17,286 bases of DNA from Candidatus Iainarchaeum sp. (GTDB lineage: Archaea > Iainarchaeota > Iainarchaeia > Iainarchaeales > GCA-2688035): contig JAQTNI010000030.1 in the NCBI GenBank assembly GCA_028713935.1, positions 1 through 17,286 on the forward strand. The letters run 5' to 3'. The notes below the pieces were generated by a model. It was not told the origin of the DNA. It made no database searches and saw nothing but the letters and a program-made list of their open reading frames with translations. The position numbers and the translations under genes were made by a program. Positions 3,499 to 16,946 of the stretch are shown one piece after another; the first letter of the stretch is position 1, and every line of letters starts with the position of its first letter.

Positions 3499-4569
3499 TT
3501 AATCTATAAATCCTGTCCTAATGCAATTGTCACACACAGTTTTTCCGTTTGGCTGCATTTTTGCAACAGCTTTCCTTGCTGAAACATATTTTTCGTTGTT
3601 CCAAACTGTTTTAAAGCCCCTTTCAAAGGCATTTCCAAAATCAAATTTTTCATTGTAATTCGCACAGCACGGGCTCACAGAGCCGTTCCAGTTTATCACT
3701 GAAACAAACCACAAAAAAGCACATGTTTTTTTCAGGTTTTTCCTCTGCTTTTTTTCAAAATCATACCTGCTTAATTCGCCTTTGCTTGGAAGCCATTTTT
3801 CAAGGGAAGAAATTTTTTTGTCATCATTGACAAAAATTTCCTTTCCCATATCAGAGCGGACTCCGCCGATTGCAAGCCTGTCAATCCCAAGTTCCTGCCT
3901 TGTTTTTTCAAGCAATGGCAATTCATGCTCATTGTGTTTCATCACCAGGAATTGCCATACAATTTCCGGCTTTTTTGACTTTAATTCTTTTTTCTTTTCC
4001 ACAACAAGCCTGATATTTTCCCAGACAATCCGCAGTTTTCCACCAACCCTGTATTTTTCATAGGTTTCCTGCGAAATCCCATCCATTGAAATGTACAAAA
4101 CATCAAGCCCTGATTTTACAATAGATTCCGCCATTGTGTCATCAAATTTTACATTCAGGTTTGTGTTCACGCTTGTCCTTGCGCGCTTCCTGTGTGCAAA
4201 TTCAATCATCTTAACTAATTCCGAATTCAAAAATGGCTCTCCCCAGTTGTTCAGGTCAATTTCATACAAAAAAGGCGCCATTTCCTCAACAATTTTTTTG
4301 TAATTGTCAAAATTCATTTTTCCAAGGCTTCTTCCTTTCTGCCCCCGCCCTGTTGGGCAGAGCGGGCATTGCAATTGGCAGATATTGCTCGGGTCAAAGC
4401 TCAGCTTGAAAGGCCAGCCAATAATGCGGGAATTCCTGAATAAAAAAAATTGTGCCCCAAGCAGCCCAATGTTAAAAAATTTCCTGAAGCCGAAATAAGG
4501 CGTGAAAATAAATCGCCCAACTCCCCGCTCCAGCTGCATTGAAAAATAGCCCATTTTAATCACTCGCAT
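3499..4569 (-). CDS. Radical SAM enzyme with a C-terminal SPASM/twitch-like auxiliary cluster domain
   Basis: 356-aa ORF. It has the CxxxCxxC radical SAM triad in SNICQLQCPLCPTG. The C-terminal region has C-x12-G-x4-C (CAFLWFVSVINWNGSVSPC), followed by CC and a terminal CDNC, and the protein ends 8 residues later. The start is ambiguous: ATG 4569 has no Shine-Dalgarno, whereas ATG 4554 (MGYFSMQ...) is preceded by GAGTGA. Confidence 0.85.
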   Translation of the reverse strand: MRVIKMGYFSMQLERGVGRFIFTPYFGFRKFFNIGLLGAQFFLFRNSRIIGWPFKLSFDPSNICQLQCPLCPTGRGQKGRSLGKMNFDNYKKIVEEMAPFLYEIDLNNWGEPFLNSELVKMIEFAHRKRARTSVNTNLNVKFDDTMAESIVKSGLDVLYISMDGISQETYEKYRVGGKLRIVWENIRLVVEKKKELKSKKPEIVWQFLVMKHNEHELPLLEKTRQELGIDRLAIGGVRSDMGKEIFVNDDKKISSLEKWLPSKGELSRYDFEKKQRKNLKKTCAFLWFVSVINWNGSVSPCCANYNEKFDFGNAFERGFKTVWNNEKYVSARKAVAKMQPNGKTVCDNCIRTGFID

Positions 4570-4637
4570 TTATGATTAATTGAATCAAAAATTGTTTTTA
4601 ATACTCTGTGGTTCAAAACTCGAACAAGCCCTTCTTT

Positions 4638-5183
4638 CTAATGCTTTTTTCCAATTATGGAAATAAATGCGCTGCCCAAATGTTCCGGCAATAATTTGTC
4701 AATTCCCGCCTTGTAAAAAAATTCTTTTTTTATCACTTCAAGGCCTGCGAGTGCAAACAAATTTTCAAGATGGCCTGCCTGGAACATCATTTTGTGCTGC
4801 ACCTTTATGTCCCTGCTTTCCTTGAACCAAAGTGTTGAGTGATAATTCCCGAATGGCCAGCTTTTTTTGTGGAAGCGCCAGTAATCAGCATTATCAACAA
4901 TTACCTGCACAATGCCGCAAGGCTTTGAGTATCTTGCACAGTTTTCCAAAAAATTCAAAGGATTGCCTAAATGGTCCAAAACACTTGCGCTGTAAACCAA
5001 ATCATAGGAATTCCAAAATTTTTTTGGCAATATTTTTTCAAGGTCCCACTCCAAATCAGTGCCCCTGGTCTTGATAAAATCCACTCCAAAGGCATTGGGA
5101 ATTTTTTTGTCACCGCAGCCGAGGTCTAAAATTTTGCCATTTGTTTTCCAAACCCTCAAAAGGATTTCATCGTGAAAATTCAT
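4638..5183 (-). CDS. Class I SAM-dependent methyltransferase
   Basis: 181-aa ORF with motif I ILDLGCGDKK and a post-I/II region DLVYSASVLDHL. It is the first gene of the minus-strand operon. It has no Shine-Dalgarno and a TATA-like box about 30 nt upstream. Confidence 0.8.
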   Translation of the reverse strand: MNFHDEILLRVWKTNGKILDLGCGDKKIPNAFGVDFIKTRGTDLEWDLEKILPKKFWNSYDLVYSASVLDHLGNPLNFLENCARYSKPCGIVQVIVDNADYWRFHKKSWPFGNYHSTLWFKESRDIKVQHKMMFQAGHLENLFALAGLEVIKKEFFYKAGIDKLLPEHLGSAFISIIGKKH

Positions 5184-5257: not shown

Positions 5258-6403
5258 ATGAGGATTTTTTTCATTACCCATACCTACTCCCTGAAAGGAG
5301 GCGGAGGCGGAGAGCTTTTCTGCAGCGATTTCCTGAAAGAGCTTGTGAAAAGAGGCCATAAAATTTTTGTTTTCACAACAAAAAGCGAGGATTTTTCAAA
5401 AGAGGAAAAAAGCCTTGGCATTGAGGTTTTCAAGGCAAATTGCTTTGGCCATCACGCTTTCCACAAATTCGAATACCTGCTGCAAACAGGCAGGGCAGTT
5501 GAGCTTGCAAAGCAATTCAAGCCTGACATTATCCATGCACAGAACGATGCATTTCCCGCTTTGATAGGCGAAAAAGTGAAAAAGGCAACAAAAGCGCCCC
5601 TTGTTGCGAGCGTTGAATATCTTTCAGACAAGGCTGTTTCGCTTAACCTGAAAATTGTTTTTTTGTTCAACAAATTTTTTTTGCCGCGCATAAAATTTGA
5701 CAGGCTTGTTTCCTGGAGCCAGTTTGTAATTGATTCCTACTTATTGCCATGGAAAATCCCCGGCAAAAAAATTGTCCTGATTCCAGGCGCTGTTGATGTT
5801 TCAGCTTTCCTGAAAAAAGCTTCTCCACATCCTGCACTGAAAAAATTCGGTTCAACATTAATTGTTTCTGCAAAGCCCCTCCACAGCACCAATGCAATGG
5901 GGCTTTTGCAGACAATAAAGGCAATGAAAATTGTTTCAGAAAAATTCCCTGCCTGGAAATTCGTTATTGCAGGCGACGGTGAAAAAAGAAAATGGCTTGA
6001 GGGAATTGTAAAGCAAGAAGGCCTTGAAAAAAATGTTTTTTTTGTTGGGCAGGTTGCGGCAGAAGAAATTCCCAGGGTTTATTCAGCAGCTGAAATTGTT
6101 GTGCACAGCTTTGCCTTCAAGGCAACAACAAGCATTGCGCTCATTGAAAGCATGGCTTCCGCAAAGGCAATCGTTGCAACTGATTTTGGGGAAGTTGCAA
6201 GCACTGTCGGAAACACTGCTGTTCTTGTCCAGCCAAACAATCCTGAAAGCATTGCAAAGGGAATAATCAAATTAATTGAAAACCCAAAGCTGCGCGCAGA
6301 GCTTGGGGAAAAAGCAAGGGAAAGGGCAGTGAAAAATTTTTCCATGCCTGCAATTGTTGACAGGTTTGAAGAATTGTATGCAGAATTATTGAAAAAAAAT
6401 TAG
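5258..6403 (+). CDS. GT-B fold glycosyltransferase (GT4 / glycosyltransferase group 1-like)
   Basis: 381-aa ORF. The N-terminus MRIFFITHTYSLKGGGGGELFCSDFLKELVKRGHKIFVFT is typical of GT4. The C-terminal sugar-nucleotide block is SIALIESMASAKAIVATDFGEVASTV. Its stop overlaps the stop of the convergent gene by 4 nt (6400-6403). Confidence 0.85.
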   Translation: MRIFFITHTYSLKGGGGGELFCSDFLKELVKRGHKIFVFTTKSEDFSKEEKSLGIEVFKANCFGHHAFHKFEYLLQTGRAVELAKQFKPDIIHAQNDAFPALIGEKVKKATKAPLVASVEYLSDKAVSLNLKIVFLFNKFFLPRIKFDRLVSWSQFVIDSYLLPWKIPGKKIVLIPGAVDVSAFLKKASPHPALKKFGSTLIVSAKPLHSTNAMGLLQTIKAMKIVSEKFPAWKFVIAGDGEKRKWLEGIVKQEGLEKNVFFVGQVAAEEIPRVYSAAEIVVHSFAFKATTSIALIESMASAKAIVATDFGEVASTVGNTAVLVQPNNPESIAKGIIKLIENPKLRAELGEKARERAVKNFSMPAIVDRFEELYAELLKKN

Positions 6404-7188
6404 AACCCCTGGATTCCGCATCTTCCAAGAGAAGCCCGCATTATTTCATTTACCTTTGGGTCTGTTTGCCTTTGGACTTCTTCCAAAAACCCTTTCGGGT
6501 TTTTTGCCATCATTTTATTTATAATTGCATGCACATCAACGCCAGCTTTAATCAGTTCTTTTTCAAATTTTATCACTGCCTGCCTTTCCCTTGTCATTGC
6601 ATCAACCATGGCAGGGTCTTTCTGCCTCTGGCTAATCAGCAGCTTGTAAGCTGTTTCTGAAGGAATAATCCCGTTTACAAAAGTATTTCCCACTTTTACG
6701 CCCCTGCAAATATTATCTCCGAGAGCCAAAATTCTTTTTTCAAGTGGCCAATTTGCATAATTTTGCAATGACCAAGAAGCCCCTGTTCCAACTAATTTTG
6801 CAACTGCAGGCGCGCCTCTTCTCGCCCAGATAATTTGTGCCTGTGCATCCTGGTCCTTGAAATCCCTTCTTGAGTCATGAGCCAGGCCAATTTGCCCAAT
6901 TAATCCAACATCAATGCGCAGCCCCCTTGCTTTTCCTGCTTTTATATAATTTGCATTCAAAGCCTTTGCTATTGCAATGCCAAAGTTTGCGACAAGCTTG
7001 CTATGAACCTTAACAGGCCTAAAGCCAGGGTTCCTTTGCCCGATTGCAACCAGTTCCCTTCTAATTCTCCTGCCTGTTTTTCCAACATTTCCCCTTCTAA
7101 TTCCTGTTCTCCCAAGTTTTATCTGAGATTCCAGAATTTCTCCCCCAATTGTCTTCGGCTTAAATTTTTTTGAAATCTTTATTGCCAT
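6400..7188 (-). CDS. Hypothetical protein, 262 aa, soluble, basic and Arg-rich; no family recognised
   Basis: Long uninterrupted ORF in a stop-rich AT-rich background. Its ATG 7188 directly abuts the TGA of the upstream GT2 (TGAATG). An AGGTG Shine-Dalgarno lies 7 nt upstream, inside the GT2 3' end. I see no TM segment or signal peptide. The N-terminus is strongly basic: KISKKFKPK...GRTGIRRGNVGKTGRRIRR. No motif I can assign to a known fold. Confidence 0.7.
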   Translation of the reverse strand: MAIKISKKFKPKTIGGEILESQIKLGRTGIRRGNVGKTGRRIRRELVAIGQRNPGFRPVKVHSKLVANFGIAIAKALNANYIKAGKARGLRIDVGLIGQIGLAHDSRRDFKDQDAQAQIIWARRGAPAVAKLVGTGASWSLQNYANWPLEKRILALGDNICRGVKVGNTFVNGIIPSETAYKLLISQRQKDPAMVDAMTRERQAVIKFEKELIKAGVDVHAIINKMMAKNPKGFLEEVQRQTDPKVNEIMRASLGRCGIQGF

Positions 7189-8052
7189 TCAGAAACACCT
7201 TGCCTTTCTTTTTTTTCTTTCCCTGGCAATTTCCTTCAAATTTTTCAGATTGTTCCAGTATGCCTGCAAAATCAATTTTCCCTGTCCAGACCTGAAGGCA
7301 TTAACAAAAATCAATCCCAAGCCAGGAACATGCCTTATCATTTCCAAAATTGTAAGGTTGTAAAGCATTGCCTTCAGCCTGTTAGTGTTCATTAAAACAA
7401 ATTGTTTTTCTTTCCCTGTCTGCTTTGTAGTGTCATGGCTGCCATAATGGATTATTGTGCTTGAATCTGTTTCAATTATTTTGAAGCCCGCATTTCTTGC
7501 CCTGTAACACCAGTCAGTTTCCTCTCCATAGATTGGGGAAAAATGTTCCGCATCAAGAACACCGATTTTTTTTACTGCCGCTGCCCGCATTAACATTGCG
7601 CCGCCACAGACAGTCATTCTTTCCCTGTCGGGCAGGATTTTGTAATTTCCTTTTTTCCACATTGGATAATCAATAATCTTTGCGCCAATAGCGGCAGCAT
7701 TCGGATATTTTTCAGCCGCATTCAAAAGATTTTCCAGCCAGTTTTCAGTAACTTCAGTGTCATTGTTCAGCATGAAAAAAAATTCTCCCTCTGCAACTTC
7801 AAAGCCCTGGTTATTGCCCTTGCTGAAGCCGAGGTTTGTTTCATTCAGAATCAGTTTCTGCAAAAATCCCTGTTTTTTCATTTTTTGCAGAAGTTCAACG
7901 CTGCCATCCCTGCTTCCGTTGTCAATTACAATTATTTCATATTTGCCTTCCGGAGAAAATTTTTTAATCGATTCAAGGCATTTTTTTATGAATTCTTTGC
8001 CATTCCAGTTTAGTACAACAATTGAAACAATGGGTTTTTTCAAGCCAATCAC
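7189..8052 (-). CDS. Family 2 glycosyltransferase (WbbL/rhamnosyltransferase-like GT-A)
   Basis: 287-aa ORF with VSIVVLNWNGKEFIKKCLESI, IIVIDNGSRDGS, MLNNDTEV and GEETDWCYRARNAGFKI. It starts at GTG 8052; there is no in-frame ATG near the N-terminus. Confidence 0.85.
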   Translation of the reverse strand: MIGLKKPIVSIVVLNWNGKEFIKKCLESIKKFSPEGKYEIIVIDNGSRDGSVELLQKMKKQGFLQKLILNETNLGFSKGNNQGFEVAEGEFFFMLNNDTEVTENWLENLLNAAEKYPNAAAIGAKIIDYPMWKKGNYKILPDRERMTVCGGAMLMRAAAVKKIGVLDAEHFSPIYGEETDWCYRARNAGFKIIETDSSTIIHYGSHDTTKQTGKEKQFVLMNTNRLKAMLYNLTILEMIRHVPGLGLIFVNAFRSGQGKLILQAYWNNLKNLKEIARERKKRKARCF

Positions 8053-8164: not shown

Positions 8165-9556
8165 ATGAATATTCTTTTGGTAAAGCTTAATGCCGAAGCT
8201 GATGAAATAATTCCTCCTGTAGGCCTGGGCTATTTGGCGAGCGCTGTCAGAAAAAGCCACAATGTTGAGATTCTTGATTGCCTTAAAGAGAACATGAATC
8301 TTCGGGATTTTCTTGGCTTTTTGCAGGGAAAAAAAATAGATTTGATTGGATTTCTTTTCTTTTCAATGAATTACGAGCAGATAAAGTCTTATTCAAAAGC
8401 AATAAAAGAAAAGTTTCCCGGGATTTTTATTGCTGTTGGCGGGCCCCATCCTTCCGCATTGCCCAGGGAAACACTTGAGGAAATCCAGGAAATAGATTTC
8501 GCTTTCCTGGGGGAAGCGGAATTGGGCTTTGCGCAGCTGGCAGATGTTCTTGCCAAAAAAAAATTTTTTCCAAAAGACTTGGAGAAGGTTTTTTCCCTTG
8601 CCTGGAGAAACAAAGGCAAAATCGTATTGAACCCGAAAAAAATATTGGAAAACATTGACGATGTCGGCCTGCCTGCCTGGGATTTGTTAAAGCCAGAGGC
8701 CTACCCGCAGGCCCCGCATGGAAGTTTTTCAAAGCAATTTCCGACTGCTCCGATTATAATCACAAGGGGATGTCCCTACAGCTGCACTTTCTGCGGAGGC
8801 AGCCTTGTTTCTGGCAAAAGAATAAGATACAGGGGCCTTGACAGCGTAATTGAGGAAATTGAACTGCTTGTCAAAAAGCACTGCATAAGGGAAATTCACA
8901 TTGAAGATGACAATTTTACAATGAACAAGGATTTTGTGGAAAAATTTTGCAAGGCGCTTATCAAAAAAAACTTTGGGATTACCTGGGCCTGCCCGAATGG
9001 AGTGAGGCTTGACACTCTTGACAGGGAGCTCTTGCTTCTAATGAAAAAATCCGGCCTTTATGTCATTTCAGTCGGCATAGAATCCGGAAGCGACAGGATC
9101 CTGAAAAGCGTGAAAAAAGTCCTGACCACAAAGCAGATAAGGGAAAAAATAGAGCTGATAGACAGCATAGGCTTTGACGTAATCGGCTTTGTAATGCTCG
9201 GCTTTCCCACTGAAACTGAGAAGGAAATTGAAAAGACAATTGATTTTGTCTGCAGCCTGCCCCTTAAACGCATAAATTTTTCGTGTTTGCAGCCATTTCC
9301 TGGAACAGAAATTTATGCCAATCTGATTGAAAATCACGAAATTGAAAAAGTTTCCTGGTCGAATTGTTTTCTCTTCAAGGCAAATTACGCCCCCAAAGGG
9401 CTTTCAATTGAAAAATTGCGGGCGCTCAGAAAAAAAGGCCTGAGAAAATTTTATTTGCGCCCAAAAATACTTTTTTCCATTCTTATTGAAATTAAAAATC
9501 CTAAGCAATTTTATTATGCTGCAAGAAGAGGGATAAGATGGCTTTTGCTGGCATAA
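8165..9556 (+). CDS. Cobalamin-binding-domain (class B) radical SAM enzyme, paralogue 1
   Basis: 463-aa ORF. The N-terminal Rossmann-like B12-binding-type domain has PPVGLGYLAS, DLIGF and VGGPHPS. The radical SAM core has ITRGCPYSCTFCGG (CxxxCxxC), followed by IEDDNF, GVRLDTLD, VGIESGS and MLGFPTET blocks. Confidence 0.85.
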   Translation: MNILLVKLNAEADEIIPPVGLGYLASAVRKSHNVEILDCLKENMNLRDFLGFLQGKKIDLIGFLFFSMNYEQIKSYSKAIKEKFPGIFIAVGGPHPSALPRETLEEIQEIDFAFLGEAELGFAQLADVLAKKKFFPKDLEKVFSLAWRNKGKIVLNPKKILENIDDVGLPAWDLLKPEAYPQAPHGSFSKQFPTAPIIITRGCPYSCTFCGGSLVSGKRIRYRGLDSVIEEIELLVKKHCIREIHIEDDNFTMNKDFVEKFCKALIKKNFGITWACPNGVRLDTLDRELLLLMKKSGLYVISVGIESGSDRILKSVKKVLTTKQIREKIELIDSIGFDVIGFVMLGFPTETEKEIEKTIDFVCSLPLKRINFSCLQPFPGTEIYANLIENHEIEKVSWSNCFLFKANYAPKGLSIEKLRALRKKGLRKFYLRPKILFSILIEIKNPKQFYYAARRGIRWLLLA

Positions 9557-9584
9557 TTTGGCATGGTTTGGCTCGGTGGTTCAA

Positions 9585-10982
9585 ATGAAAATTTTGTTCA
9601 TGATTCCAATACAAAGGGCATATGTAATAATGCCGCCGCTTGGGCTTGGCTATCTGGCAAGCCTTTCAATAAAAAAAGGCCATGATGCCAGGCTTCTTCA
9701 TTGTGTGCTTGAGAAAATGACTTTTGAAAAATTTTCAGAGTTCATAAGCAAAAATGATTTTGACCTGATTGGAATACAAATGAACACGATTGACGTTAAC
9801 AGTGTGAAAAAGCACATTGAAATTATAAAAAAGCTTAAGCCCAAAACAATAATTGTTGCCGGCGGCTCCCACCCGTCATGCGATCCAATAGGGACAATGG
9901 CAGAGTTTAAAAACCTGGATTTTGCCTTTCACGCCGAAGCCGAAATCGGATTTGCAAAGTTTCTTGACTGGCTTAAGAAAAACAATGCCGGCAAAAAGAA
10001 TCTTGCCGGGCTTAAAAAAATTCCCGGCCTTATCTGGCGTGACTCAAAAAAAATAGTTGCAAACCCGCCCGCCTTTGTCGATGACCTGAGCTCGCTTGAC
10101 TTTCCCGCCTGGAGCCTTATGGATCCGCGCAGCTATCCCGAAGCTCCCCACGGCGCTTTTGCAAAAAATTTTCCCACTGCCCCCATGGTAATCACAAGGG
10201 GCTGCCCTTTCCAATGCACTTTCTGCGCAGGCAAGAGAATCACTGGCCTGAAGGTAAGAAAACGCTCAATAAAAAATGCCATTGAAGAAATAGAATTTTT
10301 GAAGAAAAATTACGGAGTCAAGGAAATAATGATAGAGGATGAAAACTTCACCCTGCACAGGCATCTTGTTGAGGAGTTTTGCAGTTCGCTGATTCAAAAA
10401 AACCTTGGGATAAGCTGGAGCCTGCCTTCCGGAGTGAGGCTTGACACCCTTGACGCGGACTTGTTGAAACTTATGGAGAAAAGCGGCTGTTACAGCGTTG
10501 CAGTCGGAATAGAATTTGGCAGCCAGAGAATACTGAACCTGACCAAAAAACAGCTCACAATAGAAAAAATAAAGGAAAAAATGGGCCTTTTCAAGAAAAC
10601 CAATATCAAGGTAACGGGCTTTTTCATGATTGGTTATCCCGGGGAAACAATTGAGGAAATTAATTCCACAATAAAACTGGCCTTGGAACTGCCTCTGCAA
10701 AGGGCGCAGTTCAATGGTTTTATGCCATTGCCCGGGAGCGAGATTTATAACACCCTTGTTTCTGAAAAAAAGCTTGGCAAGCTTGACACTGACAGGTTTT
10801 TTGTGCATGATGTCGCCTTTGTGTCAGAGGGGATTACAAGGCAGCAATTGCAGAATCTGAGAAGGAAAGCATACCTCCTTTTTTATATGCGGCCTAAAAT
10901 AATTGCGCACCTGTTTGAGGAAATAAAAAGCCCGAGGCACCTGGGCCTGCTTTTGACGCGTTTTTTTGATTCTTTGAAGTGA
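9585..10982 (+). CDS. Cobalamin-binding-domain (class B) radical SAM enzyme, paralogue 2
   Basis: The track ORF starts at TTG 9558. ATG 9585 (MKILFMIP...) aligns with the paralogue N-terminus (MNILLVKL...) and has a GGTGG Shine-Dalgarno 5 nt upstream. It is collinear with paralogue 1: PPLGLGYLAS, AGGSHPS, ITRGCPFQCTFCAG, IEDENF, GVRLDTLD, VGIEFGS, MIGYPGET. Confidence 0.85.
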   Translation: MKILFMIPIQRAYVIMPPLGLGYLASLSIKKGHDARLLHCVLEKMTFEKFSEFISKNDFDLIGIQMNTIDVNSVKKHIEIIKKLKPKTIIVAGGSHPSCDPIGTMAEFKNLDFAFHAEAEIGFAKFLDWLKKNNAGKKNLAGLKKIPGLIWRDSKKIVANPPAFVDDLSSLDFPAWSLMDPRSYPEAPHGAFAKNFPTAPMVITRGCPFQCTFCAGKRITGLKVRKRSIKNAIEEIEFLKKNYGVKEIMIEDENFTLHRHLVEEFCSSLIQKNLGISWSLPSGVRLDTLDADLLKLMEKSGCYSVAVGIEFGSQRILNLTKKQLTIEKIKEKMGLFKKTNIKVTGFFMIGYPGETIEEINSTIKLALELPLQRAQFNGFMPLPGSEIYNTLVSEKKLGKLDTDRFFVHDVAFVSEGITRQQLQNLRRKAYLLFYMRPKIIAHLFEEIKSPRHLGLLLTRFFDSLK

Positions 10983-12793
10983 CAATTTTATTTTATAATG
11001 CGTTTTTATTACTTTTCTTCAGCTTATTTACTTGCAGTCAGCCAATGATTTTGCGTGGTAATTTGGAAGAAAAAAAATTATTTTTCATAATTGTAACAAT
11101 TCTTTTTTTGTCCCTGTTTGCACTGAGGTTTATTTCGCTTGAGTCGGATCCCCTGCTGCTTAAAAGAATAGGCGATGCCGGGGACGAGGGTTACTGGATT
11201 CATAATGCAAAAAATCTTGCCCTGTTCGGCCAGTTTTCCCTGGATGACTGGAATCCATTTATTTTGTCCCCCTTGAGCACTGTTTTGTTTTTCCTTTCAT
11301 TCAAGGCATTTGGAGTCGGTTTTTTTGCAATGCGTTTTGTGCAGGCCTTATTCAGTTGCCTTATTTTGCTGTTAATGTTCTTTTTTGTCAAGAAATATTC
11401 AAATATAAAAACAGCCCTGATTTCAGTTGTTCTTGCAGGGACCTCAATAACCTTTTTGGCTTTCAACAGGCTCGGCCTGCTTGAAACAGGCCAGTTGTTT
11501 TTCCTCCTGCTCTTGGTTTACCTTATCGGTGAAAAAAAATTTTTTTTGTCCGGGCTTGCCTTTGCAATCGCTGTTCTCCTAAAGGTTTCTGCAATTCTTT
11601 ATCTCCCTGCTTTTGGATTCCTTCTGCTGTTCGAGCTTTTTAAAGGAAGAGCGAAGATAAAGCAGGTTTTTTACTTTGCGGCCGCGCTTATTCCGGCCGC
11701 CGCAATCTACGCCGCAATTTTTGCCTTTTTTCCTTCTTTTGCCCAGAGCTTTTTTGGGGTTACAAATCCCGGGACAACGAGCCTCCTGAACTTTTTCTTT
11801 ATTCTTACAAATCCATTGTTCCAAAGAATTGATTTTTACCTGCTGTTTTTATTTTCGGCCTTATTCCTGCTTGGCTTGTTTGCAAAGAAAAGAACACGGG
11901 AATTAAATTTTTTGGAATATTCTTCCATAATCTGGCTTGTTGTTGGCCTTGCAGCAATGCCTTTTGGCGATTTTTCCGACAGGCGCTTCTTTGTTTTTTT
12001 AGCCCCAATGGCAATTCTTGCCGCATTGCTTCCGACTGTCCTGCCTATTAACTTCAGGGACTTGATCGGAAAAATACAGAAGCACAAATTTTTCCTGCTT
12101 TTGCCTCTTGCAATAGCCCTGTTTTCTTTTTTTAATCCTGTTTTTGCAGTTACACTTCCAGATTATTATTCTTTTATCCTGCCAATTGCATTTATTGTGG
12201 CATTGCCTGTTTTGTGGTACTTGTTGCGGTTCAATCGGGTTGCCGCTTTTCTTGTCGGCTGCCTGGTTCTTACAACGGCATTTCAGGCAATTTTTGTCCT
12301 GGCAGGCGAATTTGGCGCAGTTATTTCAAAGGACATTTTGAAACTGGCTGTTTTTGCAGGCATTATTTTACTGGCGATTTTTTATTCGCGGATAAATATC
12401 ACTGAAAATTTTTTCAGGCGCGCAATTTATGCCGCTATTGGAATTAATATTCTCCTCATAATCCTTTCTTTTGCTTTTATGGCAAACACGCTTTACCTTG
12501 AATCAAAAAATCTTGGGATTCCAAATAATAAAACACTCGCCGGGGCATTTTCCCAGGAGCTTTCCTTGGAAAACAAAAACCTGGATTTGAAAATTTATTG
12601 TTCCGGAGTAGAAAGCAATTTTAACAAGGAAATCAAGCCGGATTATATATTGGTCCCAATTGAAAGCAATTCCATGTATTGTGACGCAAACCATTTTGGA
12701 AAAACACGGCTTGTAAAAGAAATAGGGCTATTTCCTAATGCCTTTTCAGGGGAATACAGGGCGCATTTGAAATTGTATGAAATAATCAAATAG
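10979..12793 (+). CDS. Polytopic GT-C fold membrane glycosyltransferase (ArnT/PMT-like; predicted to use a polyprenyl-phosphate sugar)
   Basis: 604-aa ORF with many hydrophobic helices. The first-loop acidic motif DAGDEGYWIHNAKNLALFG follows TM1 (the DE..Y pattern of the ArnT/PMT_2 family). There is a roughly 90-aa soluble C-terminal domain. The GTG start overlaps the upstream stop (GTGA). ATG 11045 (MILRGNLEEKK...) is an alternative start. No WWDYG motif, so this is not an AglB/STT3 oligosaccharyltransferase. Confidence 0.75.
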   Translation: MTILFYNAFLLLFFSLFTCSQPMILRGNLEEKKLFFIIVTILFLSLFALRFISLESDPLLLKRIGDAGDEGYWIHNAKNLALFGQFSLDDWNPFILSPLSTVLFFLSFKAFGVGFFAMRFVQALFSCLILLLMFFFVKKYSNIKTALISVVLAGTSITFLAFNRLGLLETGQLFFLLLLVYLIGEKKFFLSGLAFAIAVLLKVSAILYLPAFGFLLLFELFKGRAKIKQVFYFAAALIPAAAIYAAIFAFFPSFAQSFFGVTNPGTTSLLNFFFILTNPLFQRIDFYLLFLFSALFLLGLFAKKRTRELNFLEYSSIIWLVVGLAAMPFGDFSDRRFFVFLAPMAILAALLPTVLPINFRDLIGKIQKHKFFLLLPLAIALFSFFNPVFAVTLPDYYSFILPIAFIVALPVLWYLLRFNRVAAFLVGCLVLTTAFQAIFVLAGEFGAVISKDILKLAVFAGIILLAIFYSRINITENFFRRAIYAAIGINILLIILSFAFMANTLYLESKNLGIPNNKTLAGAFSQELSLENKNLDLKIYCSGVESNFNKEIKPDYILVPIESNSMYCDANHFGKTRLVKEIGLFPNAFSGEYRAHLKLYEIIK

Positions 12794-12814: not shown

Positions 12815-13573
12815 CTAATCAAAAAACCTGTATTTCAAAAGGGTTTTCAGCGCAACAAACCCATCGCTTATTTTTATTTTCTTGCCTTCCTTGTGTGTCC
12901 TTGCCCTGTAGGTTATGGGCACCTCAAGAATTGCATGCCCATTTTTTAGAATTTTTGCGGTAATTTCAGGCTCAAAATCAAATCTTTTTGAATGAAGCTC
13001 AATTCCCTTAATTGCTTCGCGCCTGAATGCCTTATATCCTGTTTCCATGTCAGAAATATTGTGAAAAAAAAGAATTGCTGTTGCAAGAGACAAAACCTTG
13101 TTGCCTATCAAATGGCTGATTATCTGCTTTCCGATTATTTTTCCCTTAAACCTTGAGCCAAAAACAACATTTGCCTTGCCATTGAGAATGGGGGCTATTA
13201 CCTTTCCAATTTCTTCCGGGTCATATTCAAGGTCAGCATCCTGAATAATCATTATGCTGCCAGTTGCTTTTTTCAGGCCGGCCGCAACTGCAGAGCCCTT
13301 TCCCCCGTTTTTTTTGCCGATTGCAATAATGCCCCTGTTTTTCACTGCAATTTCCTCTATTATTGCCTGGCTTTTGTCAGTGCTTCCGTCATTTACAATT
13401 ATTATTTCCTTTTCAATGGGCAATTCCAGCCCAATCACTTTTTCAAGAAGAATTTTTATTGTCCGTTCTTCGTTGAAAACAGGCATGATAATTGACAATT
13501 TTTCCCAAGGCTTTTGGAAGCGAGGCAATGGCCGAGCGCTCCGAAAAGGCTTTGACAATTTTTCTTTGTTCAT
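12815..13573 (-). CDS. Family 2 glycosyltransferase, polyprenyl/dolichyl-phosphate sugar synthase-like (Dpm1/GtrB/ArnC type)
   Basis: 252-aa ORF with LSIIMPVFNEERTI, IIIVNDGSTDKS, GKGSAVAAGL and QDADLEYDPEE (DxD). It has the short soluble architecture typical of polyprenyl-P sugar synthases and sits directly downstream of a GT-C gene. Confidence 0.8.
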   Translation of the reverse strand: MNKEKLSKPFRSARPLPRFQKPWEKLSIIMPVFNEERTIKILLEKVIGLELPIEKEIIIVNDGSTDKSQAIIEEIAVKNRGIIAIGKKNGGKGSAVAAGLKKATGSIMIIQDADLEYDPEEIGKVIAPILNGKANVVFGSRFKGKIIGKQIISHLIGNKVLSLATAILFFHNISDMETGYKAFRREAIKGIELHSKRFDFEPEITAKILKNGHAILEVPITYRARTHKEGKKIKISDGFVALKTLLKYRFFD

Positions 13574-13598: not shown

Positions 13599-14954
13599 TT
13601 ATTTTTTCTCAAAAGGGGTTATTTCAACGGTTATGTTCGGGTTCATTGTTATTGCCATGAAAAAAGTATTTTTTTCATCAACAATGTACTTTGTGTAATC
13701 CTCTTTTATGCTTGCAAGCTTCCTGTTTCCGAAAAACTCAGTGAAAAACATTCCAGTAAAAGGGGTTTCCTTGTATTTGCCAGAGAGAGAGGAAATTTTT
13801 TCGTCAACAATTATCAATGCGCCTTCAGGGGTTTCCGAATAAATTTTTTTGAAAACCTCGAATTTCAAATCCTGCTTTTCCTTGTGCTTGAGCATTGCAA
13901 AGCCCGAGCATGCAACCATAAGAATTATTGCAACAACAGCAATTTTTCCCATGTATTTTTCAATGGAAAATTTTTGGATTATTCTCCAAAGGCACTCCGC
14001 ATAACAAACAAGCATCAGGGGCACTATCGGCGCAAATTTATCAGCGCCTATTATCAAATCTTCCAGCCTGAACCTCGGGTAAAAGAAAAAATAGCTTCCC
14101 CAGAGCAGCACAAAAATTATGCTTGAAATTATTGTTGCATTGCGCAGCCTGTTTTTTGAGAAAAACATTGCAAAAAACATTAAAGGGAAAATAACAGACA
14201 GCAGCGCAACATAGTATGCCGCTTTCAATGGGAAATCCTGAAGCGTGAACGATGCGTATCCCAGCACAGAGTATGCTGTTGCAAAAGGGCTTCCATACAA
14301 AAAGCTGTTGAAAGCCAGTGTTATTGCAGCGCCCGGAACAGCGCCAGCAATGAAAAGCCATGCCTTTGAAACCTTTTTTTTGTCAATGAAAATTGCAATC
14401 AGGAATGCAAGCGCAATTGCGGCGTTTGTATAGCGCGAAAGAACAGAAATGCCAGCAAAAAAACCCGCCAGTGCAAATCCCTTATTGTCATTGCGCAGGA
14501 AAAAATAGGCCGTAAGGAGAACAAATGTTATTGATGACATTTCCGCCTCAAGAGTTGTTGAAAGCAGGGCAATTGCGGGAAAAAAAAGGTAAAGCAGGCT
14601 GAAAATTGCGGGCAAATCAAGTTTTTTGAGTATTTTGTAAATAATAAAAAGATTGATTAAATGCAGCACTAATCCCAATAAAAAGCTGAATTGCCAGCCG
14701 AACAGCGCAAAAGGCGCGATAAGCACTGAATGCAGCGGAGGATAAGCGCTTACATATGCGCTTCCATTGAAGGCATAGCCATAAGAGTAAAGGGGGTCTG
14801 TTATAAGCATTTTTCCAGTGAAAATCAGGTAAGCGTTCCTCAAATATGTCTGTTCGTCAGGGTAATGGTAAAAATTCGGGTAAAAGAGAAAAAACATTAA
14901 GGCGAACACTGCTGCACAGCCAATTATTATCCTCCTGTCTTCAAGAATATTCAT
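13599..14954 (-). CDS. Polytopic GT-C fold membrane glycosyltransferase (PMT_2/ArnT-like), second paralogue type
   Basis: 451-aa ORF with about 10 or more hydrophobic segments. The first loop, YHYPDEQTYLRNAYLIF, carries the DE..Y motif. Its ATG overlaps the upstream stop (ATGA at 14951-14954). No WWDYG motif. Confidence 0.75.
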   Translation of the reverse strand: MNILEDRRIIIGCAAVFALMFFLFYPNFYHYPDEQTYLRNAYLIFTGKMLITDPLYSYGYAFNGSAYVSAYPPLHSVLIAPFALFGWQFSFLLGLVLHLINLFIIYKILKKLDLPAIFSLLYLFFPAIALLSTTLEAEMSSITFVLLTAYFFLRNDNKGFALAGFFAGISVLSRYTNAAIALAFLIAIFIDKKKVSKAWLFIAGAVPGAAITLAFNSFLYGSPFATAYSVLGYASFTLQDFPLKAAYYVALLSVIFPLMFFAMFFSKNRLRNATIISSIIFVLLWGSYFFFYPRFRLEDLIIGADKFAPIVPLMLVCYAECLWRIIQKFSIEKYMGKIAVVAIILMVACSGFAMLKHKEKQDLKFEVFKKIYSETPEGALIIVDEKISSLSGKYKETPFTGMFFTEFFGNRKLASIKEDYTKYIVDEKNTFFMAITMNPNITVEITPFEKK

Positions 14955-15433
14955 TTTTTCTTCTCCAAAAATTCCTTTATTGCATTGACAAGCCCTTCCT
15001 TGTCTGAAGCGATTTTTGGCGAAAATTTTTCGGCTTCCCTGATTTTTGTTCCTAACTCTTTGATTTCAAAAACTGCAAGCGCCCTGCCTTCTTTTTCAAG
15101 CGCTTCAGCCAAATCAAGCTGGTGGTCGTTTGTATGCTCCCCAAATTTCTTCATTCTCGGCACAATTACAAGCCTTTTTTTGTTCAGCATTGCATTTATT
15201 ATTGTCCCTGCGCCGCCATGCGAGATTACAATGTCTGCCCAGCCGAATTTTTCAACAAATTCTTTTTCATCCAAAAATTTTTTGAAAGCAAAATTTTTAG
15301 GCTCATAATCTGAATTTCCCGCCTGCGCAAAAACTTCCGCATTTATTTTTTTCTCCCCGAGCAGCAAATCCATCTCCTTCAGAAGCCTGTTGAACTGCTG
15401 CGCATGAGTCCCAACGCTGACAAAAATCTTCAT
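14951..15433 (-). CDS. Alg13-like catalytic subunit (glycosyltransferase 28 C-terminal domain; PssE/CpsG type) of a split UDP-GlcNAc transferase
   Basis: The track ORF extends to 15490, but that extension overlaps the upstream gene by 58 nt. ATG 15433-15431 overlaps the upstream TGA by 1 nt (TGATG) and gives MKIFVSVGTHAQQFNRLL...ADIVISHGGAGTIINA...VIVPR...NDHQLDLAEAL. This is the Alg13/MurG C-terminal half signature. Confidence 0.8.
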   Translation of the reverse strand: MKIFVSVGTHAQQFNRLLKEMDLLLGEKKINAEVFAQAGNSDYEPKNFAFKKFLDEKEFVEKFGWADIVISHGGAGTIINAMLNKKRLVIVPRMKKFGEHTNDHQLDLAEALEKEGRALAVFEIKELGTKIREAEKFSPKIASDKEGLVNAIKEFLEKKK

Positions 15434-15879
15434 CAAAAAACACTTCCTTCGAATTTCGCCTTTGGAAAAAATTCCAGGTTCTGTTTCCACTGGACAAAAA
15501 AGGCGTCTGCAATTTTGTACATTATTTTTCCGCTTAAGCTCGGTCCCTTGACCCTGCAGAAGCTTTCAATAAAAATTATTTTTTTGAAAAACAATTTTCC
15601 AAGCAGGCAAATCGGAATTGCTGTGTCAGCCCCAGTGCTGATTATCACATCGGGCTTTTCCCTGAGCAGAACTGTCAGGCCCTGCAAAAAGTTTTTTGCC
15701 AGTTTTAAAGGGTTTCTGCGCGGGCATTCAACAAAAACAACTTTTTCTTTTTTTGAAAGCCCTATTGCATTGCCCCTGTAATCTGAAACAAAAAAATGTG
15801 TTTTTCCCTGCCAGGCTTTTTCAAGCTGCAGCAATTCAGTCAAATGCCCGCCTGCAGAGCAGGCCAAACAGATTTTCAT
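15433..15879 (-). CDS. Alg14-like membrane-association subunit (PssD/CpsF type) of a split UDP-GlcNAc transferase
   Basis: MKICLACSAGGHLTELLQL..., PDVIISTGADTAIP and IFIESFCRV are Alg14-family blocks. The track starts at TTG 15882. ATG 15879 has a GGAG Shine-Dalgarno 6 nt upstream, in the 11-nt gap after the AglH stop. Confidence 0.8.
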   Translation of the reverse strand: MKICLACSAGGHLTELLQLEKAWQGKTHFFVSDYRGNAIGLSKKEKVVFVECPRRNPLKLAKNFLQGLTVLLREKPDVIISTGADTAIPICLLGKLFFKKIIFIESFCRVKGPSLSGKIMYKIADAFFVQWKQNLEFFPKAKFEGSVF

Positions 15880-15890
15880 CAAAACTCCGC

Positions 15891-16946
15891 TCAGTAGTTT
15901 ATCTTAAGCAAAAACATTGCAAACACGATTATGCTTATTGCTGCCTGGATTGCCAGGATTCTTATTACAACTTGTTTTTCATTGAAATTCCCGAGTTTCA
16001 TTATTACATGGGTAAGGGAACCGCTTTTTTTTCCAGGCGCTTTAAGAATGCCGTTTTTTTGCGGGATTCCAAAAGATTCAACCTGCATTTTGTATCTCGC
16101 CTTGAGAAGCAATTCCACAAAGAAAAGCGCCATCAGCAAAACCCCGATTTTTTCCATGTTGCCGAGAATGACAATTGTTGCTATTCCGGCTCCAATCATG
16201 AGAGTAAGGCTGTCTCCTCCAAAAACTCTTGCGGGAAACCAATTGTAACGCAAAAAAGCGATTAATGCGCCAAGCATTGCGGCTGCAATTATTGTTGATT
16301 CAATCTGCCCGTATAAAAAGGAAATTATTAACAGAGTCAATGCAATTATTGCCCCTAATCCCGCTTCCAGGCCATTTAAGCCTGCGAGCATGTTTGTTGC
16401 ATTGCTTGCCCCTGTCACTCCTATCGGCACAAGGAACAGGGAATACACCACGCCGAATGAAACAAGCCCGAAAAATGGAATCAGGAATTCGTTTGGCAGC
16501 AGGCCAAGAAAAGGGATTTTTATTGCGGGATTCCCAATTTTTATTGCCATGAGCGGAAGCGCGGCAAACAGGGGAATAAGCGCGTGCTGCCATTGCCTTA
16601 TCCCGTCTTTCCATCCGATCAGGTCATCTATCACGCCTAAAAAGCAAACCAAAAAAATTGTTGCAAAACCCGCTAGCAGGTATGTCAAATTGAATTCAAT
16701 CCAGTGAAGATAAGTGGAGAAAAAAATTGCAAGCATTATTGCAAAGGATATTCCAAGCCAGACAGGAATTCCGCCAAGCTCAGCGATTTCAGGCCTGCCA
16801 GCCTTGTTCAGGTCTTTTCCAGTCATGCCCCTTTTTTTCATCCTTTCTATCCAGAGGGGCAACACATAATTTGTAATCAGAAAAGACGCTATTATTGCAG
16901 TTACTATCACAATTAAAAATAGTTTCAAAAAAAACACTCCTTTCAA
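15891..16946 (-). CDS. aglH: UDP-GlcNAc:dolichyl-phosphate GlcNAc-1-phosphate transferase (Alg7/AglH type, Glycos_transf_4 family)
   Basis: 351-aa polytopic ORF with MTGKDLNK after TM1, VIDDLIGW, and NATNMLAGLNGLEAG, which is the archaeal/eukaryotic GPT block (bacterial WecA/MraY have DG-x-DGL here). There is no ATG at the N-terminus. Candidate starts are TTG 16946 and TTG 16928; the latter lies 8 nt after an AAGGAG site. Confidence 0.85.
   Translation of the reverse strand: MKGVFFLKLFLIVIVTAIIASFLITNYVLPLWIERMKKRGMTGKDLNKAGRPEIAELGGIPVWLGISFAIMLAIFFSTYLHWIEFNLTYLLAGFATIFLVCFLGVIDDLIGWKDGIRQWQHALIPLFAALPLMAIKIGNPAIKIPFLGLLPNEFLIPFFGLVSFGVVYSLFLVPIGVTGASNATNMLAGLNGLEAGLGAIIALTLLIISFLYGQIESTIIAAAMLGALIAFLRYNWFPARVFGGDSLTLMIGAGIATIVILGNMEKIGVLLMALFFVELLLKARYKMQVESFGIPQKNGILKAPGKKSGSLTHVIMKLGNFNEKQVVIRILAIQAAISIIVFAMFLLKINY

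Follow-up and report, generated by a model that had tools for sequence, protein, structure and literature searches.

INTRODUCTION

Three-component glycosylation through a polyprenyl phosphate, of the ArnT, Gtr, PMT or AglS type, is a universal means of cell-surface decoration. In the described pathways (ArnC-ArnD-ArnE/F-ArnT, PpgS/Rv3779, GtrB/GtrA/Gtr, and Haloferax AglD/AglR/AglS), a small glycosyltransferase of family 2 (GT2) and a flippase are combined with transfer outside the cell by a membrane glycosyltransferase of the GT-C type. There is a precedent for the editing of a carrier-bound sugar, since ArnD does this hydrolytically in the ArnC/ArnT pathway. None of these systems has a radical S-adenosylmethionine (SAM) enzyme, and we know of no radical SAM step described in three-component polyprenyl-phosphate glycosylation. 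Here we analyze a 17,286-base stretch of DNA (the window), which is an entire contig of a DPANN archaeon assigned by NCBI to Candidatus Iainarchaeum, phylum Iainarchaeota. It carries two class-B-type radical SAM genes, rSAM#1 and rSAM#2, next to genes for GT2 and GT-C glycosyltransferases.

Among the described class-B radical SAM enzymes, several act on sugars. MoeK5, GenK, and GenD1 methylate unactivated sugar carbons in the moenomycin and gentamicin pathways, and the substrate of MoeK5 is a lipid-phosphoglycerate-linked sugar; they belong to actinomycete secondary-metabolite clusters, not to GT2/GT-C surface glycosylation modules. AprD4 (PDB 6FD2), a radical SAM 1,2-diol dehydratase of similar size to rSAM#1, modifies the sugar of a soluble aminoglycoside and is not known to use cobalamin. 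HpnJ (TIGR03471) has the same overall length and domain order as rSAM#1, and it acts after a glycosyltransferase on a lipid-attached sugar (PMC9204698, PMC13459092). HpnJ, Sden_1168, and BchE share one main similarity-network cluster with Fom3 and MoeK5, and both HpnJ and MoeK5 act on lipid-attached sugars (PMC9204698).

The original prediction for this locus knew of no characterized archaeal glycosylation pathway with a radical modification step, and the reviews that we consulted, on N-glycosylation in archaea and on radical SAM enzymes that modify lipids, are indeed silent on one. The term "radical SAM" was absent from the literature on archaeal N-glycosylation and dolichol phosphate that we searched, with incomplete coverage and a 2024 review included, and polyprenyl and dolichol both go unmentioned in a 2026 review on how radical SAM enzymes modify lipids. 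A literature search for an association of radical SAM genes with GT2/GT-C genes or with polyprenyl glycosylation, also of incomplete coverage, found none; the match for Patescibacteria was generic (PMC9902471).

We propose, with a probability of about one half, that the family of rSAM#1 and rSAM#2 edits a polyprenyl-phosphate-linked sugar before the sugar is flipped and transferred by a GT-C enzyme. The enzyme class and the pathway type are already known, and the GT2 and GT-C proteins are ordinary members of their superfamilies; what is new is their conserved and widespread combination.

TWO GENES OF A LARGE CLASS-B-TYPE FAMILY

The central genes of the locus are the following.

8165–9556, forward strand: rSAM#1, class-B-type radical SAM protein, 463 aa (Pfam, NCBIfam, AlphaFold2, Foldseek)
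9575–9579, forward strand: GGTGG, Shine-Dalgarno-like site, read from the sequence, 5 nt 5' of the rSAM#2 start codon
9585–10982, forward strand (open reading frame, ORF, from 9558): rSAM#2, class-B-type radical SAM protein, 465 aa from ATG 9585 (Pfam, NCBIfam, BLASTP)
11063–12793, forward strand, with the start probable (longest ORF 10979–12793): ArnT/PMT-like GT-C membrane glycosyltransferase, here called GT-C-604 (PMT_2, hydrophobic segments, Foldseek)

BLASTP aligned the two radical SAM proteins over 453 aa with 43% identity (E 9e-141). The class-B architecture that had been read from their sequences was confirmed for each, because both domains scored above the gathering cut-offs: the B12-binding domain (PF02310) with 67.8 bits in rSAM#1 and 49.8 in rSAM#2 (cut-off 32.1), and the Radical_SAM domain (PF04055) with 99.1 and 91.4 bits (cut-off 29.5). 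All of the shared motifs listed earlier (PPxGLGYLAS, GGxHPS, DFAFxxEAExGFA, PAW...YPxAPHG...TRGCPxxCTFCxG, GVRLDTLD, and MxGxPxET) were found in both proteins. So was the separate ribosome site claimed for the second gene, which lies in the 28-nt gap after the rSAM#1 stop codon. In rSAM#1, a B12-binding Rossmann domain (residues 8–125) precedes the CxxxCxxC motif, whose cysteines C203, C207, and C210 are invariant in an alignment of 62 homologues, and the protein ends in basic helices. This C-terminus is strongly basic and amphipathic, with 15 K/R against 2 D/E in residues 410–463, a composition that fits a membrane or lipid-phosphate interface.

Orthologues of rSAM#1 with 77–62% identity occur in Iainarchaeota/Diapherotrites contigs (77% in locus L006, 69% in L007, and 66% in L095), and relatives with about 50% identity occur in many Patescibacteria. 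The relatives of rSAM#2 (63–52% identity) are mostly bacterial, from Elusimicrobia, Actinomycetota, Omnitrophota, and FCPU426, and are also found in Promethearchaeota. Since the two proteins are only 43% identical and each has closer relatives of its own, they represent two old sister subfamilies. The earlier description of the pair as a duplicated module therefore does not hold in the sense of a recent tandem duplication; each subfamily is old and has its own preference in neighbours.

Scanning a single genome for each species revealed 566 relatives. With a family profile searched against 1.84 billion representatives, at least 150 clusters at 50% identity were found, all above 438 bits and nearly all with 440–490 aa. 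The named matches came mostly from uncultured lineages, namely bacteria of the candidate phyla radiation (CPR), DPANN archaea, and Omnitrophota. Neither in the long ORFs nor in the 150 top-scoring representatives was a family member fused to GT2 or GT-C; the long family ORFs, tried as candidate fusions, were rejected as N-terminal over-extensions.

The search of representatives also returned P0308 (1001 aa), in which two complete B12-binding/radical SAM modules are naturally fused in tandem. Its halves are only about 26–29% identical to rSAM#1/rSAM#2, so it is no direct evidence on the window pair. In Planctomycetales (L059), Smithella (L066, L068, L069, and L078), and Omnitrophota (L038), single loci hold four to seven class-B-type radical SAM paralogues in tandem. 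The Planctomycetales and Smithella arrays adjoin GT-C and GT2 genes; no such neighbour was recognized in L038. The arrays suggest multi-step radical tailoring in some lineages.

CONSERVED NEIGHBOURHOOD WITH GT2 AND GT-C GENES

Loci were annotated with a simple ORF caller and home-grown hidden Markov models grown from Pfam-annotated seeds. The core family, defined by a BLASTP score of at least 400 bits to either window protein, had 35 members from different loci and species. The immediate neighbour was a GT-C or GT2 gene in 26 of the 35 core loci. At least one such gene was found within three genes in 28 loci and both types in 17, and a GT2 of at most 260 aa directly abutted the radical SAM gene in 16. 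At a distance of at least six genes within these loci, GT-C accounted for 13 of 285 genes and GT2 for 12 of 285 (about 4–5% each), a background from which an immediate neighbour of either type is expected in roughly 17% of cases.

The subfamilies differed in their partners: rSAM#1-type genes mostly abut a small GT2, and rSAM#2-type genes mostly abut a GT-C. In seven cases, an rSAM#1-type gene shares its strand with a GT2 of about 231 aa immediately upstream, and six of these seven junctions have a gap of 0–11 nt. Each subfamily showed the association separately, and it was seen in bacteria as well as archaea. The link between these radical SAM genes and glycosylation, originally drawn from one locus, is much broader, extending to Patescibacteria, Omnitrophota, Elusimicrobia, Nitrospinota, DPANN, and other lineages.

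It is conceivable that the adjacency is incidental, with class-B radical SAM enzymes of an unrelated role (e.g., peptide or cofactor modification) lying in glycan islands and the window pair being a local duplication. The core loci L016, L032, L035, and L040, which have no GT2 or GT-C nearby, would agree with this, as would a metagenomic study that classes B12-binding radical SAM genes generically as secondary-metabolite tailoring enzymes (PMC9902471). We disfavour this explanation and consider it very improbable, given the excess of immediate neighbours over the in-locus background in many phyla, the recurrence of the 0–11 nt junctions with a small GT2, and the independent association of the two subfamilies in bacteria and archaea. 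Besides, no precursor peptide or cofactor genes were seen adjoining family members.

Two other types of gene recur near the family. Flippase-like genes with an LPG_synthase_TM domain are present in the related loci L002, L003, L005, L030, and L054, and small SAM methyltransferases recur near family members. The large unannotated neighbours in L040, L035, and L042 were considered as hidden GT-Cs and rejected, because they have few or no transmembrane (TM) segments or contain other domains.

GENE ORDER IN THE WINDOW AND IN ITS RELATIVES

According to Pfam and NCBIfam, glycan-biosynthesis genes occupy nearly the whole window, which appears to be a surface-glycan island. In order, they are two nucleoside diphosphate (NDP)-sugar epimerase/dehydratases, three GT2, a GT4-type glycosyltransferase, a SAM methyltransferase, a radical SAM/SPASM protein, rSAM#1 and rSAM#2, two PMT_2-type GT-C, a split Alg13/Alg14-like transferase, and a GT4-family polyprenyl-phosphate N-acetylglucosamine-1-phosphate (GlcNAc-1-P) transferase. 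The genes that follow GT-C-604 are these.

12815–13573, reverse strand: small GT2 (GT2-252), 252 aa, of the polyprenyl-phosphate glycosyltransferase type, like AglJ, ArnC, and dolichyl phosphate (Dol-P)-hexose transferase (Pfam, NCBIfam)
13599–14954, reverse strand: second PMT_2-type GT-C (GT-C-451), 451 aa (Pfam PMT_2 36.7 bits), with orthologues of 451–456 aa in L006 and L007
14951–16946, reverse strand: Alg13-like (PssE), Alg14-like (PssD), and GT4-family polyprenyl-phosphate GlcNAc-1-P transferase, N-glycan initiation genes that in relatives run on into AglB/STT3

The two closest relatives with long contigs, L006 and L007, have one rSAM#1 orthologue each and no rSAM#2. In both, the rSAM#1 orthologue and a GT2 of about 233 aa converge, and the GT2 is followed by the 451–456 aa GT-C, Alg13, Alg14, the GlcNAc-1-P transferase, and AglB, so that GT-C-451 and the small GT2 are kept together. 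Compared with this order, the window has rSAM#2 and GT-C-604 inserted between rSAM#1 and the small GT2, as an extra cassette. In the short contig L095, an rSAM#2 orthologue (68%) is separated by 4 nt from a GT-C-604 orthologue (52%), which is followed after 36 nt by an rSAM#1 orthologue (66%); the contiguous trio shows that the three genes travel together in one relative, with the order rearranged. The expectation that the rSAM-rSAM-GT-C triplet would be syntenic in relatives was therefore borne out in part: it is absent from L006 and L007, and in L095 all three genes are contiguous, in the order rSAM#2, GT-C, rSAM#1.

Other loci combine the same types of gene in various ways: rSAM, GT-C, GT2 (L002); rSAM, GT2, GT2 (L005); GT2, rSAM, GT2 (L010); GT-C, rSAM (L011); GT-C, rSAM, GT-C (L012); and GT-C, rSAM, GT2, PMT (L013). 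The GT2 gene is followed by rSAM with zero gap in L003, and in L094 a GT-C precedes a GT2 and rSAM that overlap by 4 nt.

The small GT2 partners resemble enzymes that load a sugar onto polyprenyl phosphate, as AglJ, ArnC, Dol-P-hexose transferase, PpgS, and PgfS do. With NCBIfam, GT2-252 of the window matched AglJ (121.6 bits), ArnC (72.9), Dol-P hexose transferase (62.3), and PpgS (41.5), all below the cut-offs. For the partner GT2s of five other loci, from bacteria and archaea, the best matches were AglJ, ArnC, Dol-P-hexose transferase, PpgS, and PgfS, and none reached its cut-off.

In the Parcubacteria locus L003 (11682–14281), genes for a cysteine desulfurase, NifU, an FNR-like flavoprotein reductase, and a ferredoxin come directly after the family member. 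Together, these genes look dedicated to supplying the radical SAM enzyme with iron–sulfur (Fe-S) clusters and electrons. Omnitrophota have a recurrent cassette that consists of a GT2 (~231 aa), rSAM, a single-pass membrane protein of 133–137 aa, and a GT-C of about 460 aa. The membrane protein is conserved and has the motif AVYYLYP and no Pfam match; as a GtrA-like protein it was rejected, since it has no Pfam match and one TM helix. It was found at these positions.

L015, 11398–11799: 133–137 aa membrane protein, Omnitrophota
L017, 7457–7864: 133–137 aa membrane protein, Omnitrophota
L023, 11464–11868: 133–137 aa membrane protein, Omnitrophota
L027, 10876–11289: 133–137 aa membrane protein, Omnitrophota

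THE GT-C GENE DOWNSTREAM OF rSAM#2

The third gene had been called a GT-C glycosyltransferase, and this agrees with a PMT_2 score of 31.8 bits (cut-off 26.1) and about 16 hydrophobic segments; NCBI names the protein "glycosyltransferase family 39 protein". Its homologue search gave only five matches, and the AlphaFold2 model made from six sequences was accordingly weak (pLDDT 60, pTM 0.67). With this low-confidence model, the best 36 Foldseek matches in the PDB were all GT-C proteins, ArnT first (E 1.2e-5). Residues D57, D66, D69, and E70 (and G71, W73, and H75) are invariant in four aligned sequences, just past the first TM helix. By the inferred topology, this acidic motif would lie in the first extracytoplasmic loop.

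Three start codons can be considered: GTG 10979 (the longest ORF, 604 aa), ATG 11045 (Logan, 582 aa), and TTG 11063 (NCBI, 576 aa). In an alignment with the orthologue P0242, 52% identical, TTG 11063 coincides with the start of P0242, which has nothing to match the 28 N-terminal residues of the long ORF. TTG 11063 is probably the true start. The starts in NCBI and Logan and the alignment with P0242 give a protein of about 576–582 aa that begins 62–80 nt from rSAM#2. The original prediction had the GT-C gene translationally coupled to rSAM#2 through a GTGA overlap. GTG 10979 does overlap the rSAM#2 TGA; however, as the GT-C start it is unsupported, and the coupling was rejected on the orthologue alignment and the gene callers' starts.

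From the end of rSAM#2 to the probable GT-C start, the intervening sequence (10983–11062) is AT-rich and holds TTTTATTTTATAAT. This resembles an archaeal TATA/BRE element, so GT-C-604 may have its own promoter.

PREDICTED STRUCTURE AND RELATION TO CHARACTERIZED ENZYMES

The AlphaFold2 model of rSAM#1, based on the 62-sequence alignment, had a pLDDT of 92.1 and a pTM of 0.90. It is predicted to contain, in order, a five-stranded Rossmann domain, a β-hairpin (145–155), the radical SAM barrel, and the C-terminal helices. A Rossmann domain, β-hairpin, and radical SAM barrel are the layout of class 1 of the cobalamin-dependent radical SAM enzymes (PMC13331322), with which the model agrees. The top Foldseek matches in the PDB were all class-B-type enzymes (AprD4, MgmA, TsrM, CysS, OxsB, and TokK; E 1e-28 to 1e-20). 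AprD4 was the best structural match (E 4.5e-28, TM score 0.75) and also the best PDB match by sequence.

Cobalamin binding by rSAM#1 and rSAM#2 is plausible and unproven. In the family profile, the N-terminal domain is alignable with those of the cobalamin-bound MgmA, CysS, TokK, OxsB, and TsrM, while with AprD4 only the radical SAM core (167–419) aligns and the N-domain does not. A GG(P/S)HPS loop is invariant or nearly so in the 62 homologues. The column of TokK Trp76, which lies under the cobalt, is by alignment a variable hydrophobic position (Met68 in rSAM#1, Ile in rSAM#2) and never His. The loop and this column bear on a possible base-off, His-off pocket, in which the DxHxxG histidine ligand would be missing. 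The resemblance to AprD4 calls for caution.

Scores against NCBIfam models were used in place of a phylogeny to place the two proteins among the characterized class-B enzymes. No curated equivalog cut-off was reached by rSAM#1 or rSAM#2, and neither is claimed by a curated family. The scores were as follows.

HpnJ: rSAM#1 178 bits (top match, residues 22–443), rSAM#2 158 bits, cut-off 577.6
Sden_1168: rSAM#1 166 bits, rSAM#2 180 bits, cut-off 575
BchE: rSAM#1 158 bits, rSAM#2 170 bits, cut-off 481
MJ_0865 (MgmA): rSAM#1 111 bits, rSAM#2 99 bits, cut-off 360
AprD4: rSAM#1 92 bits, rSAM#2 96 bits, cut-off 500

The match to AprD4, found with its sugar substrate in the PDB, bears on the stage at which the sugar would be modified. 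The radical SAM proteins could tailor a soluble nucleotide sugar or a free sugar phosphate upstream of the GT2, in the way that GenK, GenD1, and AprD4 act on soluble aminoglycoside sugars, and the GT2 would then load the modified sugar. The NDP-sugar epimerase/dehydratase genes of the island fit this, as does the apparent lack of TM helices in the radical SAM proteins (no 19-residue hydrophobic segment is evident in the AlphaFold2 secondary structure). We regard it as unlikely but credible. The tightest and widest linkage of the family is with small polyprenyl-phosphate-type GT2 and GT-C genes, not with nucleotidyltransferases or dehydratases; the rSAM of L012 is flanked only by its two GT-C genes, with no sugar-nucleotide genes nearby; and the basic amphipathic C-terminus suggests a membrane interface.

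The nearly full-length match to HpnJ, the top NCBIfam match of rSAM#1, raises another alternative. Like HpnJ or calditol synthase, the proteins might rearrange (ring-contract) or otherwise alter the sugar head group of a membrane lipid or glycolipid, or act on the polyprenyl carrier, and the GT2, GT-C, and flippase-like genes would build a membrane glycolipid instead of a protein glycan. HpnJ works after the glycosyltransferase HpnI on its lipid-linked sugar (PMC9204698, PMC13459092), genes with the LPG_synthase_TM (MprF-type lipid flippase) domain recur beside family members, and ArnT, the best fold match of GT-C-604, glycosylates lipid. Yet the HpnJ scores are far under the equivalog cut-off, and Sden_1168 and BchE score about the same as HpnJ, so that the resemblance is one to the main class-B cluster at large. 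The partners are also different, GT2 and GT-C here and HpnI and HpnK there, and no hopanoid or tetraether lipid genes were found in the window. In the Iainarchaeota relatives, moreover, the module is contiguous with Alg13/Alg14, the GlcNAc-1-P transferase (GPT), and AglB, which are protein N-glycosylation genes. We hold this alternative to be quite unlikely.

PROPOSED ROLE

The conserved partners of the family are parts of the three-component route. In the simplest reading, the radical SAM enzyme works after the GT2 and before the flippase, editing the sugar on its lipid phosphate. The family would then be dedicated to extracytoplasmic glycosylation from polyprenyl phosphate. The similarities to the known three-component systems are the ArnC, AglJ, PpgS, and PgfS models that match the GT2 partners and the place of ArnT as best match of the low-confidence GT-C-604 model; all GT2 and GT-C scores are below the equivalog cut-offs of those systems.

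By the mechanism that we propose, the small GT2 would load a sugar onto the lipid phosphate in the cytoplasm. Each radical SAM protein would act at the cytoplasmic face of the membrane, where SAM would be reductively cleaved at the cluster of the CxxxCxxC motif and the 5'-deoxyadenosyl radical would take a hydrogen from the dolichyl- or polyprenyl-phosphate-linked monosaccharide made by the GT2. The sugar would be tailored by methyl transfer from methylcobalamin, or by deoxygenation, epimerization, or ring rearrangement. Class-B enzymes most often methylate, through methylcobalamin, but deoxygenation of the AprD4 type and rearrangement of the HpnJ type are just as compatible with the data. The modified lipid-linked sugar would then be carried across the membrane by a flippase and transferred by the GT-C to an acceptor at the surface. 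In the window, rSAM#1, GT2-252, and GT-C-451 may form one module (A), kept in relatives beside the N-glycosylation genes, and rSAM#2 with GT-C-604 may form a second one (B), an additional cassette.

Several points weigh against this proposal. No flippase gene (GtrA, ArnE/F, or LPG_synthase_TM) was recognized in the window. Seven of the 35 core loci, including the four named above, have no GT2 or GT-C within three genes, and the link fades in more distant relatives, below about 42% identity. Glycan islands are dense in glycosyltransferases, which inflates chance adjacency, and the in-locus background of 4–5% is a partial control for this; several core loci, from related Omnitrophota, lack full independence. 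AprD4, the top match by structure, works on a soluble aminoglycoside and is not known to use cobalamin. The evidence for function comes from gene neighbourhood and homology, and neighbourhood by itself does not tell whether the substrate is a sugar on a lipid, a nucleotide sugar, the carrier lipid, or the acceptor.

OTHER FEATURES OF THE ISLAND

One further GT2 gene of the window borders the radical SAM pair.

7189–8052, reverse strand: GT2, 287 aa, divergent from rSAM#1, with the same neighbour kept in L006 and L007 (Pfam)

The PssE and PssD models were both above cut-off for the Alg13/Alg14-like genes. The longest ORF of the Alg13-like gene (14951–15882, reverse strand) encodes 179 aa from a GTG and overlaps the Alg14-like ORF by 58 nt; its orthologues have 160 aa, so the true start is probably further downstream. 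The contig stops short of the AglB gene that comes next in L006 and L007.

A third radical SAM gene of the island (3499–4569, reverse strand) encodes the radical SAM/SPASM protein of 356 aa, whose top NCBIfam match was a tungsten-cofactor maturase (120 bits, cut-off 380). It adjoins the small SAM methyltransferase (4638–5183, reverse strand). The related glycan locus L010 has a similar radical SAM/SPASM gene (3869–4903), and L002 has a radical SAM gene without a SPASM match (15445–16527). A 262-aa protein (6400–7188, reverse strand) had no Pfam family and a weak NCBIfam match to the DVU_1551 NTP transferase (E 9e-6); at the matching position, L007 has a 261-aa gene (5983–6768) beside a GT4 gene. 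No tRNA genes were found in the window, and promoter and terminator scans of it gave results no better than shuffled sequence.

IMPLICATIONS FOR UNCULTURED LINEAGES

In CPR, DPANN, and Omnitrophota, cell surfaces mediate episymbiosis. Somewhat tentatively, at a little under even odds, we suggest that a class-B, probably cobalamin-dependent radical SAM step between GT2 and GT-C (C-methylation, deoxygenation, or rearrangement) is widespread and was previously unrecognized, and that it would give non-canonical surface sugars to DPANN, Patescibacteria, Omnitrophota, and many other uncultured lineages. If true, this would mean new sugar chemistry on lipid carriers and a genomic marker for that chemistry, and it makes a concrete prediction, a modified polyprenyl-phosphate-linked sugar. 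It would also place a demand for cobalamin and Fe-S clusters on organisms with minimal genomes. The host of this locus, for which a reduced genome had been supposed, is indeed a reduced-genome archaeon of the DPANN phylum Iainarchaeota, and the finding bears on why genome-reduced symbionts that are unable to make B12 retain B12-type enzymes.

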